Source: Candidatus Tayloriibacteriota bacterium (GTDB lineage: Bacteria > Patescibacteriota > Minisyncoccia > Phycocordibacterales > PALSA-1337). Taken from it: DNA of 42,058 bases. Below are positions 32,199 to 37,289 of this stretch, piece by piece. The stretch's first letter is position 1. Each line of letters starts with the position of its first letter. A model generated the notes under the pieces. The model searched no databases. It was not told the origin of the DNA and saw nothing but the letters and a program-made list of their open reading frames with translations. Position numbers and translations under genes: made by a program. The stretch is from NCBI GenBank assembly GCA_031384385.1, contig JANNAN010000008.1, positions 1 through 42,058 on the forward strand. The letters run 5' to 3'.

Positions 32199-33575
32199 TT
32201 AACTCATCTTTTTAATCGTCTCTTCTATCATTCCTCTAAAACCATGAGAACCAAGAAATACGATTATGTCGTTATTTTTTGTATTTTGAATTAAATATTC
32301 TATCAGTTCATTATCATCTGGAATATATAAAGTATCTGAATGAGTTTTTGAAATTATAGAAGCAAGTTCATTGCCTTCCATTGGTATTACTGTATCTTCT
32401 GATATTTTTAATTTTGTAAGTCTTGGAATAATTACAGTATCTGAATTTTTGAAGGAATTATCATATTTAGTATTTGATTCACGATTTCTTCCGCCAATAT
32501 TTGGTTCAAAAATCGCAGTTATTTTCCCATTATAAATTGTTCTTATATTTTCAAGAACCGAAGACGCTTTTTCTGGTGAATGAGCAATATCATCAAAGAC
32601 TGTAATTCTTTTTATATTATCTTTAATATCTAATCTTTTTTCCAATCTTCTTTTTAATCCTTTAAACTCTAAAATTGCCTTTATGATTATTTCATCTTTA
32701 ATGCCAAGTTCTTTTGCCATAGCGAAACAGCCAGTAATATTTTCAGCTTGAAAAGCTCCAATCATTGGTGAATGAATATCTATTCCATTTATTTTAAATT
32801 TCAAGCCATTTTCGGTTTGTTCTATATTAGAATAAATATAGTCAGCATCTTTTTTCCCGTACCAAATTGCCTTTTTAACTAATTCATGAACCTTTGCATT
32901 ATCTTTATTCGCCACAATTAATCCTGATGTAGGAATTTTTGAAATTAAATCTTTGAAAGCATTAAAATAACTTTCTTCTGTAGGGTATAAATCTGCATGA
33001 TCCCAAGAAATTGCACTTAATAAAAGATGTGTAGGTTTGTAGTATACAAATTTTGGTGTATTGTCTGTTGGTGAACTTTTGTATTCATCTCCTTCAAAAA
33101 TACTGTACTTACTATCTGTAAGTTTTGCTGATGCAGAATGTGAAAGGGAAACACCGCCAAACATATAAGTCGGATCTAATCCTGCCTTTTCTAAAATAAA
33201 TGACAGAAGAGCGGATGAAGAAGTTTTACCCCAAGTTCCTGTGGCAACGATAGAATATTCTTTTACAAAGAATTTACCAATGGCTTCGGCGAATGAATAT
33301 ATTGGAATATTTTTTTCTTTTATATAAAAAGTTTCAGGATTCAATGTTCCCGAAGCTGTACCGATAACTACTATGTCTGGGCTACCTACATTTTCTGGGT
33401 GCCAACCAGCATAAAAAGAAATATTATGTTTCTCTAATTCTGCAGAAACTGGCGGAAAAAAGCCTTTGTCTGAACCAGTAACTTTCCAGCCTTTATCATG
33501 AAAAGCAATAGCTAGGGCACTAGTAGCCACGCCACAGATACCGATTATGTGAATGTGTTTAGGTGTTGGGTTCAT
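32199..33575 (-). CDS. Mpl/MurC-family Mur ligase (Mpl-like)
   Basis: IHIIGICG, GSD..FPP.S, GTWGKT, EGDEY, DHAD, DDIAHSP, FEP. Confidence 0.85.
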   Translation of the reverse strand: MNPTPKHIHIIGICGVATSALAIAFHDKGWKVTGSDKGFFPPVSAELEKHNISFYAGWHPENVGSPDIVVIGTASGTLNPETFYIKEKNIPIYSFAEAIGKFFVKEYSIVATGTWGKTSSSALLSFILEKAGLDPTYMFGGVSLSHSASAKLTDSKYSIFEGDEYKSSPTDNTPKFVYYKPTHLLLSAISWDHADLYPTEESYFNAFKDLISKIPTSGLIVANKDNAKVHELVKKAIWYGKKDADYIYSNIEQTENGLKFKINGIDIHSPMIGAFQAENITGCFAMAKELGIKDEIIIKAILEFKGLKRRLEKRLDIKDNIKRITVFDDIAHSPEKASSVLENIRTIYNGKITAIFEPNIGGRNRESNTKYDNSFKNSDTVIIPRLTKLKISEDTVIPMEGNELASIISKTHSDTLYIPDDNELIEYLIQNTKNNDIIVFLGSHGFRGMIEETIKKMS

Positions 33576-33611
33576 TGGATTATTATACTGTAATGGAGAT
33601 TTAGGGCTCTA

Positions 33612-33640
33612 TTGACAAAGTGGTTATTTAGGTGCATACT
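33612..33640 (+). promoter_or_regulatory. Promoter for the DGR target gene
   Basis: TTGACA-N17-CATACT, about 200 nt upstream of the start codon. Confidence 0.5.
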
Positions 33641-33845
33641 ACTAGCAGTTTAAAGATTAGATCTTTGATACTAATTTGCAATTCGCTACAGCAGAAAGTG
33701 CCTTATAATTTAAGGAATTCTCTGCTGTGGCGAAGTCGTGTGACCAAGCCAGTCCTACCTAGGACAACAGTAAACCAAAAACTATCCGATTCAGAGCTTC
33801 CACCAAATATGTGTGGAGTGCAATGAGGAGGGAGAAAGGAATACA

Positions 33846-34544
33846 ATGAAAAAGTTAGATTGGAAAGGTGTTGGGCAGTTTTTTGCTGTCCTCATAAACC
33901 TCATCACCATCATCACGACTACCCTGAAAAAAGCTGCTGTCAGTATCGAGATCCTCGACTGGCTGACTGGCGCAGGGAAGTCGGAGTTTGTCGCTGCGCT
34001 CGAAAAGCTCGGCGAGTCCTACAAGAAATCTGTTCCTGAGCCTCTGCCGGTCAAGGCGAAAACGGGTGAGTCGTATGTGATACATTCCGCAAGGGTGAAT
34101 CTCTCTGCTCAACCGAAATTGCCTTTCAGCGGCGCGACCGTTGAGTCCAACACGGGAGGCGGCATGGACGTCTTGATCGAGATGAAATCGGATGGTCATC
34201 TGTATGTGGACGGAAAGAAAATCGTCCTCCATCTCGAACAAGGTCATCGCACAGGTTCAATGCATGGCCACAAGCTCCGCGAGGCGCTTAGAGGCAAGTC
34301 GGTCATGAATGCGGCTCTGCTGGATTTCCTCAAAGAAAACCCGCAGTTCATTCCGAACTATTGGAAGGTTGATGAAAAGGGCAATACCCGTTACATCTAC
34401 TTCTGGAGAACGGTTTTCCGCAGCTCCGATGGCAGCCTCTATGTCCGTTGCCTCTACTGGAACGATGGCAAGTGGATCGCGGACTACCGCTGGCTCGGTG
34501 ATGACTGGAGCTTCTTCGACCCGGCTGCGGTGTCCGCAAGTTAG
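33846..34544 (+). CDS. DGR target protein with C-terminal variable region
   Basis: ATG 33846 follows GGAGAAAGGA; the 3' end contains the VR; visibly GC-richer than its neighbours. Confidence 0.9.
   Translation: MKKLDWKGVGQFFAVLINLITIITTTLKKAAVSIEILDWLTGAGKSEFVAALEKLGESYKKSVPEPLPVKAKTGESYVIHSARVNLSAQPKLPFSGATVESNTGGGMDVLIEMKSDGHLYVDGKKIVLHLEQGHRTGSMHGHKLREALRGKSVMNAALLDFLKENPQFIPNYWKVDEKGNTRYIYFWRTVFRSSDGSLYVRCLYWNDGKWIADYRWLGDDWSFFDPAAVSAS
34418..34539 (+). repeat. DGR variable repeat (VR)
   Basis: 122-bp ungapped match to 34922-35043 with 14 mismatches, 13 of them opposite TR adenines. Confidence 0.96.
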
Positions 34545-34642
34545 CACTTAGGGCTCGGTTACTGTGTTCTGTGGCTTCTAGACACTTTGACCTTTGCTCT
34601 CGCGATACGAAAACGCTTTGAAGGGCGTTCGATAAAATCTTC

Positions 34643-34672
34643 AAACCCCGTTGCATCTGCGCGGGGTTTTAT
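34643..34672 (+). terminator. Hairpin downstream of VR (terminator and/or DGR homing hairpin)
   Basis: aaaccccg...cggggtttt; a second small hairpin lies at about 34611-34629. Confidence 0.65.
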
Positions 34673-34921
34673 TATTTATATATGCTAGAATTGTCCGCGG
34701 TAGTAGGTGAATATGCGAGCGACTACGGTTGCTCGCTACCGAATCCAGTATCCATACATCGAGAATATCTCCGACTAAGGTTTGGGGTAGAGTGGTGTAT
34801 TTCGAACTTCATCAAAAAATGAATATACTTGGTACGAAACGCTATAGTATTACGATACCAAATACGATACAACTCCGAGAGTATTCAAGGGGTGGTGGCA
34901 TGGAAGGCGTTTCGTATAATA

Positions 34922-35043
34922 CCGCAACTCCGATGGCAACCTCTATGTCCGTTACCTCTACTGGAACGATGGCAAGTGGATCACGAACTACAACTGGCTC
35001 GATAATGACTGGAACTCCAACAACCCGGCTGCGGTGTCCGCAA
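34922..35043 (+). ncRNA. DGR template repeat (TR)
   Basis: AAC-rich copy of VR; in the VR frame it reads RNSDGNLYVRYLYWNDGKWITNYNWLDNDWNSNNPAAVSA. Confidence 0.96.
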
Positions 35044-35079
35044 TTTTCTTCATTTCTCTCCCACAAAAACGGGAGAGTT

Positions 35080-35481
35080 TTATTTTTCTATTTGTTTATT
35101 TACTTGCCCATACCAACCACCAAGCATTTTACCTATTTCATGTAATAGGGCAGAAATAGTAATGTATTTTTTATTATCTAATCCTTTTGATTCCCATAAA
35201 ACTAATAAAAGTATTTTTAATGTATCTAATTTTCGTATAGCAACTTTTATATATGGTAATTTTTCTGATCTTGATGAAAAGGCCGCTGAAGAAATCATTT
35301 CAATTATCTCTATAAATATATTATCAATTTTATTACCCAGAGAGTATTTTTGCGACTTCTGAATTTTTTCATGATATTCATGCCATAACTTGTATACAAT
35401 TTTTACTCTATCTAGCACTGGTAAAATCGTTGGGGGGGGGAGGGTAACATTTGAGGAATGAGCAGAATTAAATTTATTCAT
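35080..35481 (-). CDS. avd: Avd-like accessory protein (four-helix bundle)
   Basis: LPV...Y.LW, KYSLG.KI, LD.LK.LL, EIGKMLGGW; lies between TR and RT; ATG 35481 preferred as start. Confidence 0.85.
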   Translation of the reverse strand: MNKFNSAHSSNVTLPPPTILPVLDRVKIVYKLWHEYHEKIQKSQKYSLGNKIDNIFIEIIEMISSAAFSSRSEKLPYIKVAIRKLDTLKILLLVLWESKGLDNKKYITISALLHEIGKMLGGWYGQVNKQIEK

Positions 35482-36459
35482 GCGTACGATGATATCATTT
35501 CTATAGAAAATTTGCTCGAAGCATGGCATGAATTTATTTTAGGCAAAAAGAACAGAAAAGATGTTCAGCTGTTCCAGCTTCATCTAATGGATAATATTAT
35601 TGATTTACACAAAGAATTAAAAAATAAGACATATATTCATCATGGTTACAAAGCTTTTAAAATTTCAGATCCCAAACCTAGAAACATTCACAAGGCCAGT
35701 GTTAGAGATAGGCTACTTCACCATGCCATTTATCGTATGTTATATCCATTTTTCGATAGGACATTTATAGCCGATTCTTATTCTTGTCGTATGCGAAAGG
35801 GCACACATAAGGCCATGGATAGATTTAATATCTTTACTAAAAAACTTTCAAAAAATCATACGAAAACGGCATGGGTTCTCAAATGTGATATTAAAAAGTT
35901 TTTTGATTCAATTGACCATGCTGTTTTAAGAGAAATTTTATCAAAGTATATTTTAGATCAGAATATTTTAAATCTTTTGTCCGGGATAATCGGTAGTTTT
36001 GAATCAAAAATAGATAGTACTGGTGTTGGTTTACCACTAGGCAATCTCACATCACAATTATTTGTAAATATTTACATGAATGAATTCGATCAATTTATGA
36101 AGCATAAAATTAAGGCTAAATATTATATAAGATACGCAGATGATTTTGTGATTATGGATAATAATAAAGATTATTTAATTAAATTACTCCCTAAGATTAA
36201 TGATTTTTTAAATGATAAGTTAAAACTTACGCTTCATCATGGTAAGGTCTTTATAAAAACAGTTAATTCGGGTGTTGATTTTCTTGGCTGGATTCATTTT
36301 ACTGATCATAGAGTATTAAGAACTTCAACAAAAAGAAGAATGTTTAGAAATTTAAAGTCTAAAAAGCCTCAAGAAGCCACTGTTCAATCATATCTAGGCT
36401 TATTTAAACATGGGAATGCAAAAGAGTTGGGGAATAAAATAAGGGGACTTTATTTATAA
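35458..36459 (+). CDS. DGR reverse transcriptase
   Basis: PKPR.I, RDRLLHHA, SYSCR..KGTH.A, KCDIKKFF, GLPLGNLTSQLF.NIY, RYADDF, GVDFLG. Confidence 0.96.
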   Translation: MSRIKFIHAYDDIISIENLLEAWHEFILGKKNRKDVQLFQLHLMDNIIDLHKELKNKTYIHHGYKAFKISDPKPRNIHKASVRDRLLHHAIYRMLYPFFDRTFIADSYSCRMRKGTHKAMDRFNIFTKKLSKNHTKTAWVLKCDIKKFFDSIDHAVLREILSKYILDQNILNLLSGIIGSFESKIDSTGVGLPLGNLTSQLFVNIYMNEFDQFMKHKIKAKYYIRYADDFVIMDNNKDYLIKLLPKINDFLNDKLKLTLHHGKVFIKTVNSGVDFLGWIHFTDHRVLRTSTKRRMFRNLKSKKPQEATVQSYLGLFKHGNAKELGNKIRGLYL

Positions 36460-36483
36460 TTAGATTTAATATATTATTTGTAT

Positions 36484-36654
36484 ATGAAAAATTTAAAATC
36501 TAATAAAAAGAGAAAAAATAAAATTCCTGTATCATATTATCCATCTGAATATCTGAAAAAAACTATTGCTGAGTCAGAAAGAGAATACGCTGAGGGTAAA
36601 ACAAAGTCTTATTCTAGCGTGGAAGAATTAATTAAGGCCTTGAACTCGAATTAA
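36484..36654 (+). CDS. Small protein resembling the C-terminal part of RelB/DinJ-type antitoxins (56 aa)
   Basis: ...PSEYLKKTIAESEREYAEGKTKSYSSVEELIKALNSN*; TATTAT lies 6 nt before the ATG. Confidence 0.55.
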   Translation: MKNLKSNKKRKNKIPVSYYPSEYLKKTIAESEREYAEGKTKSYSSVEELIKALNSN

Positions 36655-37289
36655 ACTGCTTTCCCCAAAATCTCCTTAACCTCCTCCAAATCCTCTGACC
36701 AATTTTCTCCGTCAAACCACTCTATTCCAGAAAATTGTAATTTATAAGTATCACTAGGTCTTTGAAGAGATCCAAGATAAACATATTTTAATCCAAGCGT
36801 CTTTGCTTCTAGAATTGCCTTTATCATCATTATCATTCCCATATTTTTGGGTGTAGTTTCTAAATTATAAAAAGGATAGCAATAATGCATCATTGAATTA
36901 TTTTTATAACAAATAGTATAACCAAATCCTGAATATGAAAGTAGGGAATTGAAATTATGATTTGTTGTTAGTATTTCTTTAATTTTATTTGCTGAAAATG
37001 CATGATCTGTTTTTTCATCATAAAAATTCTTAGCCATTTTACCGATTTCCCAAGTATATGCTGAATAGGGAATTGAATGTTCTTCAAATATTACTTTTTC
37101 ACCTTTCTTTAGAATTCTGCGATTTTCACTTGAAATTTCAAATTTACCTAAATCAATTCGTATACTTCTAGTTTGTTGCATTATTCCTTTTTCTAAGCGT
37201 GTAAAAACAAAACCATTATCATACATTTTGGTAATGATTTCAGGAGAATCATTTTCTATTTTTTCCTCTTTCCAATTTAAGTATTTCAT
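36651..37289 (-). CDS. Aminoacyl-tRNA-protein transferase-like protein (ATE1/Bpt-like GNAT fold)
   Basis: SIRIDL..F..S...RRIL, Y.FY......MG..M....I..AK.LGLKYVYLG, YK.QF..IEWFDG..W. Confidence 0.7.
   Translation of the reverse strand: MKYLNWKEEKIENDSPEIITKMYDNGFVFTRLEKGIMQQTRSIRIDLGKFEISSENRRILKKGEKVIFEEHSIPYSAYTWEIGKMAKNFYDEKTDHAFSANKIKEILTTNHNFNSLLSYSGFGYTICYKNNSMMHYCYPFYNLETTPKNMGMIMMIKAILEAKTLGLKYVYLGSLQRPSDTYKLQFSGIEWFDGENWSEDLEEVKEILGKAV

Follow-up and report, generated by a model that had tools for sequence, protein, structure and literature searches.

The model of reverse transcription in DGRs rests on BPP-1, where an essential scaffold lies 3′ of the template, and the DGRs of CPR bacteria have an antisense avd gene at that position. 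The BPP-1 DGR RNA consists of 20 nt of avd, the template repeat (TR) and a 140-nt spacer, Sp, and CPR bacteria are described as especially rich in DGRs (Handa et al., 10.1101/2023.10.23.563531, available text). The question raised by the locus described here, found in a window of 42,058 nt (the whole stretch of DNA analysed), is what serves as the RNA scaffold when the place of the spacer is taken by a gene on the opposite strand.

The locus is a genuine DGR with an A-biased pair of variable repeat (VR) and TR, a bAvd protein above the Pfam cut-off and an RVT_1 reverse transcriptase (RT) (Table 1). Aligned to TR with an offset of 504, VR shows 17 differences across 34415-34542, and the TR base is A in 15 of them; of the remaining two, one is a C-to-T difference and the other lies at the boundary. 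The final 21 nt of VR (34519-34539) match TR exactly and form a putative IMH-like invariant stretch, and the stop codon of the target gene (34542-34544) comes 5 nt after the end of the VR. The target protein has a hydrophobic stretch at the N-terminus, and no family match to it was found in Pfam, NCBIfam or the PDB sequences. The avd product scores 47.9 bits against Pfam bAvd PF22296 (cut-off 40) and 61.5 bits against NCBIfam DivGenRetAVD NF033474, which is below the cut-off of 80 for that family. The RT translation contains LGNLTSQ, which we take to be the DGR hallmark [I/L]GxxxSQ. Genome contigs yielded 574 relatives of the RT, and the RTs of 80 loci show 61-68% identity to it, with A-biased TR/VR pairs present in 58 of these loci.

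Table 1 Features of the DGR locus, with positions in the window
Feature	Position	Strand	Remarks
DGR target gene	33846-34544	+	ATG 33846; listed ORF from GTG 33813; VR at 3′ end
Variable repeat (VR)	34416-34539	+	aligned to TR at the offset given in the text
Terminator-like hairpin (ACCCCG...CGGGGT) and T-run	34645-34676	+	3′ of target gene; dG −13.4
TGCTAGAAT, extended −10-like element for the TR RNA	34683-34691	+	TGnTAnnnT conserved in position
Predicted stand-alone TR RNA	34698-35087	+	~390 nt; 5′ scaffold, TR, linker, 3′ hairpin, U tract
HP1	34715-34736	+	9-bp stem, UACG tetraloop; 6/7 scored pairs compensatory, 94.5% paired
HP2	34766-34789	+	~10-bp stem, one bulge, UAAG tetraloop; 9/10 pairs compensatory, ~95% paired
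A-rich strand (AAATGAATA)	34817-34825	+	pairs with linker 3′ of TR
Domain closed by 12-bp long-range helix (34832-43/34906-17)	34832-34917	+	ends 2 nt before TR
Template repeat (TR)	34920-35043	+	VR/TR alignment
Linker strand (TCTTCATTT)	35047-35055	+	pairs with 34817-34825; CTCTYTTCATTT conserved in relatives
3′ hairpin CTCTCCC/GGGAGAG and T tract	35056-35087	+	terminator-like on + strand only
avd core	35080-35418	-	112 aa from GTG 35418; Pfam bAvd PF22296
avd long ORF	to ATG 35481, or 35529 as listed (35080-35529)	-	ORF list
TGGTAAAAT, possible extended −10 for RT	35419-35427	+	just upstream of G run
G9 run (C9 on avd strand)	35432-35440		between avd core and RT start
DGR reverse transcriptase (RT)	35458-36459	+	RVT_1, E 3.5e-25
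Antisense TGATATCAT, possible avd promoter	35489-35497	-	RT codons 11-14; 7 nt upstream of antisense ATG 35481

The arrangement of the core, with TR on the plus strand (34920-35043), avd on the minus strand (35080-35418/35481) and RT on the plus strand (35458-36459), is that of architecture B3, defined as 'TR-(avd)-RT' with avd on the reverse strand and accounting for 90% of CPR DGRs in the available text of Wu et al. (2018, NAR 46:11, PMC5758913). An earlier note on this DNA had rightly seen avd as antisense, placed between TR and RT and running toward the TR hairpin, and had called the layout unusual unless it were already the documented norm for the clade; both the literature and the relatives indicate that it is that norm. 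The minus-strand avd lies directly 5′ of RT in 77 of the 77 related loci having DNA upstream of RT, and the order VR(+), TR(+), avd(-), RT(+) recurs at 58 of the 58 loci with a detected TR/VR pair. The locus further shares with the CPR B3 DGRs the host group, the single adjacent target gene upstream and Avd as the sole accessory gene, and there is no difference in layout between them. As far as its available portion goes, the paper of Wu et al. (PMC5758913) concerns gene order and does not treat promoters, RNA structure flanking TR or a repeat between avd and RT.

The limits of the TR-containing RNA can be inferred because a conserved promoter-like element and a hairpin with a T-run mark its two sides, and comparison with the relatives supports the earlier prediction of a discrete RNA of ~390 nt through the −10-like element, the 5′ domain and the hairpin with its T-run. 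We infer that this RNA is a separate transcript, independent of those of the target gene, of avd and of RT. The extended −10 proposed previously, TGcTAGAAT, is found at 34683-34691, and TGnTAnnnT occurs in the homologous 120-nt interval of 43 of 59 sequences, compared to 11.4 on average in shuffles; it occurs on the minus strand in 2/59 and in the adjoining intervals in 5/59 each, and the exact motif is missing in 16 of the 59. Upstream of this element, a hairpin with a T-run similar to that following the target gene lies between VR and the promoter of the TR RNA in 33 of 59 sequences, and by the criteria used a clear target-gene terminator is absent in the other 26.

At the other side, the RNA is predicted to end as the earlier note had it, in the pieces ctctccc (35056-62) and gggagag (35071-77) followed by TTTTATTTTT (35078-87). 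When each locus was folded separately, a hairpin with dG ≤ −8 and a T-run after TR was obtained for 56/59 sequences (median −13.2). The stem shows 47 compensatory cells, a value reached by none of 500 shuffles when the stem was specified by columns, although the related sequences are not independent and the shuffle counts given here and below are therefore not probabilities. On a plain MAFFT alignment of the 3′ element RNAalifold returned no structure, since the varying loop lengths displace the register. The element has the form of an intrinsic terminator, a GC-rich hairpin and then a U tract, and termination is predicted from that form. At the level of the single sequence, 2 terminator-like sites were found versus 2.5 expected and both the hairpin and the −10 are at chance, so that their weight comes from conservation in the relatives; the single-sequence fold of the ~390-nt RNA (−110.6 kcal/mol, z −1.88) is modestly better than those of shuffled sequences.

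A different role for the 3′ hairpin has to be considered, as stem-loops just 3′ of TR, including those of CPR DGRs, have been read as Avd-binding elements, putative examples being present in 207 of 278 Avd-containing DGRs (Handa et al., 10.1101/2023.10.23.563531, available text). The hairpin may therefore bind protein instead of, or besides, terminating transcription, or it could be no terminator at all but the stem-loop that Avd binds in a BPP-1-like spacer, in which case the DGR RNA would continue through the antisense avd, as Sp, possibly in a long plus-strand transcript with RT. Consistent with this, the spacing between TR and the hairpin is short and constant in all relatives, and RT, which lies 370 nt downstream in the same orientation, has an uncertain promoter of its own: TGG[T/C]AAAAT-like sequences, seen by eye and uncounted, are found upstream of RT in the relatives, about half of them with C at the first base of the hexamer. 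However, the T-run comes directly after the stem in 56/59 sequences, as in an intrinsic terminator, whereas the loop size and stem sequence are freely variable, and the described 9-bp form with a tetraloop fits the upstream hairpins HP1 and HP2 better. In addition, conservation beyond the hairpin is expected from the coding of avd (GKMLGGW), and a complexity like that of Sp is already present in the scaffold 5′ of TR. A continuing, spacer-like RNA appears improbable to us on this evidence, and the hairpin is treated below as the predicted terminator of a discrete RNA.

The scaffold itself occupies ~220 nt 5′ of TR, for which RNAalifold gives 40 pairs, 36 of them showing compensatory changes. 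In this domain 95.7% of cells are paired versus 38-48% with slid partners, and 617 cells are compensatory versus 84-145 in the slid controls, with 0/500 shuffles reaching that number. The hairpin reported earlier, with gcgagc at 34715-20, UACG at 34724-27 and gctcgc at 34731-36, corresponds to HP1 and covaries across relatives, and the apical motif GRY-YAMG-RYU is common to HP1 and HP2. The domain nearest to TR encloses HP3 (34847-58) and HP4 (34872-93), and for helix 4 the paired fraction is 97.6%, compensatory change being seen in 10 of its 12 pairs. The outer stem with which the earlier note had closed its 5′ domain is weakly supported across relatives: cggtag (34698-34703) and ctaccg (34736-34741) are present here, yet in the relatives they are 65% paired with a covariation of 0.127, and a control slid by −3 is equally good. 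A tentative alternative pairing of GGTG (34706-09) with TACC (34737-40) is somewhat above it, at 74% and 0.289.

The second conserved feature of the scaffold joins the two flanks of TR. The 9-bp duplex between the A-rich strand and the linker is 82.1% paired compared to 45-67% in slid controls, the high chance level being that of an A/U-rich duplex, and it has 73 compensatory cells versus 6-17, the observed value being reached by 0/500 shuffles. As the A-rich strand pairs with the linker directly 3′ of TR, TR becomes a closed loop. The 'different priming structure' suggested by the earlier note is plausible in this form, in which a conserved scaffold 5′ of TR would be clamped onto the TR 3′ end by a covarying duplex.

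The distribution of the 5′ domain follows that of the RT. A model was built from the 5′ domain (model R1; 110.5 bits at 34832-34917) and tracks DGR RTs across the phylum: it matches 29 of 151 evenly drawn genomes, 28 of these 29 have a DGR-type RT (E ≤ 1e-30), and 8 of the 36 RT-bearing genomes lack an R1 match. Most of the listed pairs have the RNA and RT on the same strand, the RNA being ~570-700 nt upstream. The 652-kb genome of the present locus holds four RT copies and the 5′ RNA domain at three DGR copies; a further copy on contig 4 has the complete order RNA(+), avd(-), RT(+), a second on the same contig has avd(-) and RT(+) but lacks a match to the RNA, and on contig 17 RNA(+) and avd(-) run up to a contig end.

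Such a domain might also be an independent regulatory or structural RNA, a cis-acting leader or an sRNA, that neighbours TR and plays no role in reverse transcription. A search of Rfam 15 over 33000-37000 gave no family at E ≤ 1 except a chance match to STnc550 (E 0.28), and the lack of a named family for the 5′ domain would suit such an RNA. Rfam 15 presumably carries RT-10, a motif that Weinberg and colleagues are said to have placed in the Sp region in 2017, and if so a match to RT-10 is likewise absent from the searched interval. The independence of the domain is nevertheless very hard to reconcile with its position within 2 nt of TR, its covarying pairing across TR with the 3′ linker, its co-occurrence with the DGR RT in nearly all domain-bearing genomes and its presence at three DGR copies of one genome, and we regard it as extremely unlikely. 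Given a covarying domain before TR and a model that tracks DGR RTs, the scaffold appears to lie on the 5′ side of TR, in contrast to the spacer of BPP-1. The locus is thus very probably an ordinary CPR (Patescibacteria) DGR of B3 layout, with target and VR(+), TR(+), avd(-) and RT(+), and with TR embedded in a conserved, structured RNA of ~390 nt.

Several elements of this RNA have counterparts in BPP-1. In both systems essential-looking RNA flanks TR, RT and Avd are homologous, a structured element lies at the 5′ boundary of TR, stem-loops of ~9 bp carry tetraloops, and a duplex forms between a stretch upstream of TR and one downstream of it. The distribution of the parts is different: BPP-1 has its large scaffold, Sp, on the 3′ side of TR and requires no more than 20 nt before TR, whereas in the present locus the conserved structure takes up ~220 nt on the 5′ side and just ~45 nt (linker, hairpin and U tract) follow TR. 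The present locus lacks a ~140-nt structured non-coding spacer on the TR strand, the interval from TR to RT being filled by the antisense avd, and the BPP-1 genes are co-oriented without a separate promoter and terminator for TR. An equivalence of the flank duplex to the cPRT Stop of BPP-1, or else to its template:primer duplex, is hypothetical.

In the mechanism we propose, the extended −10-like element would give rise to a discrete TR RNA, separate from the transcripts of the target gene, avd and RT. Its 5′ scaffold, consisting of two tetraloop hairpins that share one apical motif and then the domain with the 12-bp helix abutting the TR 5′ end, would replace the BPP-1 3′ spacer in binding RT-Avd. 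The flank-joining duplex would set the start site of the cDNA at the TR 3′ end, the 12-bp helix at the TR 5′ end may act as a stop, and the RNA would terminate in the hairpin and U tract. The layout is already known, and a self-contained folded TR RNA with a scaffold on the 5′ side was not found described: a literature search for the RNA structure of CPR DGRs or for a repeat at the avd/RT junction returned none, and the predictions in the supplement of Handa et al. (10.1101/2023.10.23.563531), which may include CPR DGRs, used only 40 nt of sequence upstream of TR and 100 nt downstream.

The remaining part of the layout to be explained is the start of avd, where the earlier note had reported an overlap of 24 bp with RT and proposed an antisense coupling of the two genes. 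The overlap stands if avd begins at ATG 35481 (RT begins at ATG 35458), but it is a property of the reading frame at the present locus and is not conserved in relatives, which leaves little ground for the coupling. In 26 of 78 sequences the reading frame of avd does not stay open as far as the start of RT. The gene probably begins near GTG 35418, and the overlap would therefore not be constitutive: a start codon is found right at the avd core in 47/78 sequences, and the Avd profile is already matched over its full length by the 112-aa form, whose residues 5-103 align to positions 7-103 of 104 in DivGenRetAVD.

The long form of avd could nevertheless be real, with translation from the antisense ATG inside RT, perhaps on a leaderless mRNA, and with the G9/C9 run acting as a slipped-strand ON/OFF switch; the present locus would be in the ON phase, and the overlap would be genuine and phase-dependent. 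What brings this reading into consideration is a non-triplet repeat at the same spot in 75/78 sequences, consisting of G runs of 5-14, (GT)n, (GA)n, (TTGG)n, (TTCG)n or (TGGC)n, whose length and type differ between relatives. The frame from the antisense ATG is open through the repeat in 75/75 sequences, but both this ATG and the open frame are a simple consequence of the conserved N-terminus of RT (xIxFxH), which is free of antisense stops. Moreover, RT codons 11-14 keep an antisense TGnTAnnnT ahead of that ATG at synonymous and variable-residue positions: 56 of 81 sequences carry the motif within the initial 60 nt of RT, plus-strand position 36 of RT is T in 72/81 although residue 12 varies, and the codon of Ile13 is ATC in 54/81. 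The upstream ATG is in frame in 12 of the 19 sequences without TTG, GTG or ATG at the core versus 19 of the 59 others. Against the long form, besides the complete profile match and the frequent start codon at the core, just 18/75 sequences have the upstream ATG in frame, fewer than the one third expected by chance. A switched long avd is thus conceivable but doubtful, and a start near the GTG is preferred.

Phase variation by simple sequence repeats, which acts at promoters that diverge or overlap and within 5′ coding regions, is exemplified by Haemophilus hif and by the poly-G tracts of Neisseria and Campylobacter. The junction described here likewise has, always in one place between two divergent genes, a long homopolymer or a repeat of di- or tetranucleotide units, and its length differs between relatives; in distinction from those systems, the variation is known here from comparison between relatives and not from length changes at the population level. 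Contigs from one DNA run, possibly of the source sample, cover 34699-34764, 35104-35139 and 35432-35500 only, and two of these three pieces derive from related DGR copies.

Taken furthest, the two lines of observation would suggest that CPR DGRs use a permuted DGR RNA, in which the scaffold and the priming nucleotide (the conserved A at the 3′ edge of 34817-25) lie 5′ of TR under a promoter and terminator of their own, together with a phase-variable mutator, in which the slippery repeat sets the frame of a leaderless avd mRNA from the ATG inside RT and switches hypermutation stochastically. We put this combined proposal forward as a speculative one that is, on present grounds, unlikely to hold in full. 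The layout as such adds nothing new, and the interest of the locus lies in what the layout implies for the RNA mechanism. An RNA of ~390 nt with a 5′ scaffold and a flank duplex provides a concrete model that bears on cis-priming and stopping from the other side of the template, and the conserved slippery repeat between avd and RT, if functional, would mean that targeted hypermutation is itself stochastically switched.

The element in the window is a genuine diversity-generating retroelement (DGR), and sequence inspection found every feature of the earlier note in place. The variable repeat (VR) at 34416-34539 aligns to the template repeat (TR) at 34920-35043 with an offset of 504, and of the 17 differences between the two within 34415-34542, 15 fall where the TR has an A. 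The reverse transcriptase (RT) matches Pfam RVT_1, and the minus-strand ORF encoding the accessory protein Avd scores 47.9 bits against Pfam bAvd (gathering score 40). Profile searches gave no family match for a 58-aa ORF directly 3′ of the RT (36478-36654, plus strand). The G+C content is 43-56% in the region of the target gene and TR RNA (33800-35100) and about 25-33% in the surrounding genes, avd and RT. Just 3′ of the VR and the stop codon, short repeated CTTNGG/ACTTTGA-like words are common to relatives (window equivalent 34545-34620), which may represent a target-site element akin to the structure that follows the VR in the Bordetella phage prototype BPP-1.

The layout of the locus, with avd on the opposite strand ahead of the RT, had been considered unusual unless it should prove to be the documented norm of the clade; this was looked for and is exactly what was found. 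Wu et al. 2018 (PMC5758913) give an architecture B3, "TR-(avd)-RT", where the parentheses denote the reverse strand. At least 574 RT relatives were found, of which the best 80 (61-68% identity), nearly all labelled as Patescibacteria/CPR MAGs, were kept. In tblastn searches with Avd, 77 of these 80 loci have a minus-strand avd immediately upstream of the RT, while the RT of the remaining three (L037, L059 and L072) starts at most 36 nt from the locus edge, with no upstream DNA, so that all 77 informative loci agree. An A-biased TR/VR pair is found in 58 of the 80, always in the order VR(+), TR(+), avd(-), RT(+), and in the other 22 the upstream sequence is mostly too short to reach the TR and VR. 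The window DGR is an ordinary example of an established architecture. Its own 652-kb genome has four RT and four Avd copies, with the RNA domain present at three of the four DGR copies. One copy on contig 4 shows the full order RNA(+), avd(-), RT(+), and the second has avd(-) then RT(+), the RNA model giving no match there. On contig 17, RNA(+) and avd(-) reach the contig end, and the fourth RT, at the end of contig 21, probably belongs to the same copy, split over two contig ends; its RT match includes a TAG.

Features of the DGR locus (window coordinates) and further DGR copies in the same genome (G000; C4, C17 and C21 are its contigs)
Feature	Position	Strand	Remarks
Extended -10-like element TGCTAGAAT	34683-34691	+	sequence
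HP1	34715-34736	+	9-bp stem, UACG loop
HP2	34766-34789	+	UAAG loop
Long-range helix, 12 bp	34832-43 with 34906-17	+	encloses HP3 and HP4
HP3	34847-58	+	
HP4	34872-93	+	
3′ hairpin ctctccc/gggagag, then TTTTATTTTT	35056-35077	+	terminator-like; 5 of its 7 pairs are G-C
Avd ORF	35080-35529, in-frame ATG 35481	-	sequence
RT start	ATG 35458	+	sequence
DGR copies in G000	C4:13583-15177; C4:28463-29801; C17:24329-25018 with C21:11529-12576		

On their own, neither the hairpin nor the -10 element of the window exceeds chance: the scan gave 2 terminator-like sites against 2.5 expected, and it did not pick out the -10 element, which lacks a -35. A stand-alone TR RNA is nevertheless supported by comparison of the window with the 58 loci that have a TR/VR pair (n=59). 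First, TGnTAnnnT occurs 180-300 nt upstream of the TR (a 120-nt window) in 43 of 59 sequences, mostly at 228-249 nt, compared to a mean of 11.4 and a maximum of 20 in shuffles, 2/59 on the opposite (minus) strand there and 5/59 in each neighbouring window. Next, a hairpin with dG <= -8 (median -13.2) and a T-run immediately after it lies at most 85 nt from the TR in 56 sequences, and in the other three the hairpin is present with a T-run that by eye is interrupted. The stem sequences diverge (CTCTCCC/GGGAGAG, CTTCCGCC/GGCGGAAG, CCCCG/CGGGG and others), and their alignment, although imperfect, gives 47 compensatory cells and a covariation score matched by 0/500 shuffles. With its T-run confined to the plus strand, the hairpin does not serve avd as a terminator. 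Finally, a terminator-like hairpin with a T-run follows the target gene at 34645-34667 and has an equivalent in 33/59 by our own criteria. In many relatives the avd frame continues antisense across the U tract and 3′ hairpin (window 35080-35100; TR end +20 to +60) and ends either in the hairpin loop or at the TCA within the conserved linker CTTCATTT, so that one stretch of DNA encodes both the C-terminal tail of Avd and the 3′ element of the RNA.

The predicted RNA also has a conserved 5′ scaffold. RNAalifold on the 249 nt upstream of the TR predicted 40 pairs, 36 of them with compensatory changes; 95.7% of cells are paired (38-48% in slid controls), with 617 compensatory cells (84-145) and a covariation score of 0.754 (0.19 at most). 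Each measure was reached by 0/500 shuffles; as the sequences share kinship, shuffle counts here and elsewhere overstate significance, and the slid controls give a fairer yardstick. The apex GRY-YAMG-RYU is common to HP1 and HP2. Of the structured 5′ domain that had been proposed, the inner gcgagc/gctcgc hairpin (HP1) is upheld by covariation and the outer stem cggtag 34698-34703/ctaccg 34736-34741 is not, being 65% paired with a covariation of 0.127; an alternative GGTG/TACC pairing was only slightly better. Further downstream lies a conserved A-rich strand at 34817-34825 (AAATGAATA). Its complement is found in the linker at 35047-35055 (TCTTCATTT), which is likewise conserved, lies 3 nt past the end of VR/TR homology and abuts the 3′ hairpin. 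This 9-bp flank-joining duplex is 82.1% paired (n=59) versus 45-67% in slid controls, with 73 compensatory cells versus 6-17 and a covariation of 0.332 versus at most 0.109 (shuffles 0/500). The TR thus forms a loop, its 3′ end closed by the duplex and its 5′ end separated by 2 nt from the 12-bp helix. Strong covariation across the 59 sequences supports the proposal that the TR lies in a discrete RNA whose flanks are organised differently.

A covariance model of 34815-34921, built on 56 sequences with 108 positions and 23 pairs, hits the window once and the genome three times, each hit adjoining a DGR copy. Among 151 genomes sampled evenly across the phylum, 29 have model sites and 36 an RT relative at E <= 1e-30, including 28 of the 29 RNA-bearing ones; eight of the 36 have no RNA model match. 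In most pairs listed the RNA lies ~570-700 nt upstream of the RT on the same strand.

The 24-bp avd/RT overlap requires ATG 35481, which is antisense to the CAT of a conserved His, codon 8 of the RT. In 26 of 78 sequences the avd frame closes ahead of the RT start, and only 19 have an in-frame ATG upstream of the avd core, whose aligned N-terminus carries TTG, GTG or ATG in 47 (GTG 35418 here; median gap to the RT 32 nt). The 112-aa Avd from GTG 35418 covers positions 7-103 of the 104 in the Avd profile. As start-codon, closed-frame and profile evidence favour a short Avd, the overlap is read as not conserved and is probably not constitutive, and the suggested antisense coupling through it is unsupported as a conserved feature. 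The junction is nevertheless out of the ordinary: in 75 of 78 sequences the stretch that separates the avd core from the RT start contains a slippery repeat (window 35432-35440; related loci L001-L080), which is G5-G14 in most. Six loci have a repeat of another non-triplet unit in place of the G run, namely (GT)n, (GA)n, (TTGG)n, (TTCG)n or (TGGC)n. A TGnTAnnnT is kept antisense in RT codons 11-14, 7 nt ahead of the antisense ATG (window 35479-35497, minus strand; 81 sequences), even at a codon of variable residue: codon 12 ends in T in 72/81, and Ile13 is ATC in 54/81 despite the AT-rich genomes, which suggests that the RT gene harbours an avd promoter within its coding part. Together with an antisense ATG that is open through the repeat in 75/75, this would also fit a long, phase-variable and possibly leaderless Avd, but that ATG is in frame with the avd core in only 18/75, and we regard such a product as a serious alternative, though less likely than the short Avd.

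Rfam 15 has no family matching the TR RNA, and a literature search of main texts found no description of it or of the junction repeat. Neither the repeat nor the way in which this RNA, as a variant of the known DGR type, is organised appears to have been described. Weinberg et al. 2017 placed the RT-10 motif in the BPP-1 spacer, with other RT motifs for other DGRs as speculation. According to the Handa et al. preprint (10.1101/2023.10.23.563531), the BPP-1 RNA needs 20 nt upstream of the TR and a 140-nt downstream spacer, which provides one stem-loop each for binding Avd and RT, the priming adenosine and a cPRT Stop duplex with the upstream segment. The survey in that preprint reached only 40 nt 5′ and 100 nt 3′ of the TR and would therefore have missed the 5′ domain. 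In contrast to BPP-1, the proportions here are inverted, with ~220 nt of structure 5′ of the TR and ~45 nt 3′. The 5′ domain may serve as the RT-Avd scaffold, the flank-joining duplex would set the initiation site at the TR 3′ end, and the 12-bp helix could act as the stop.
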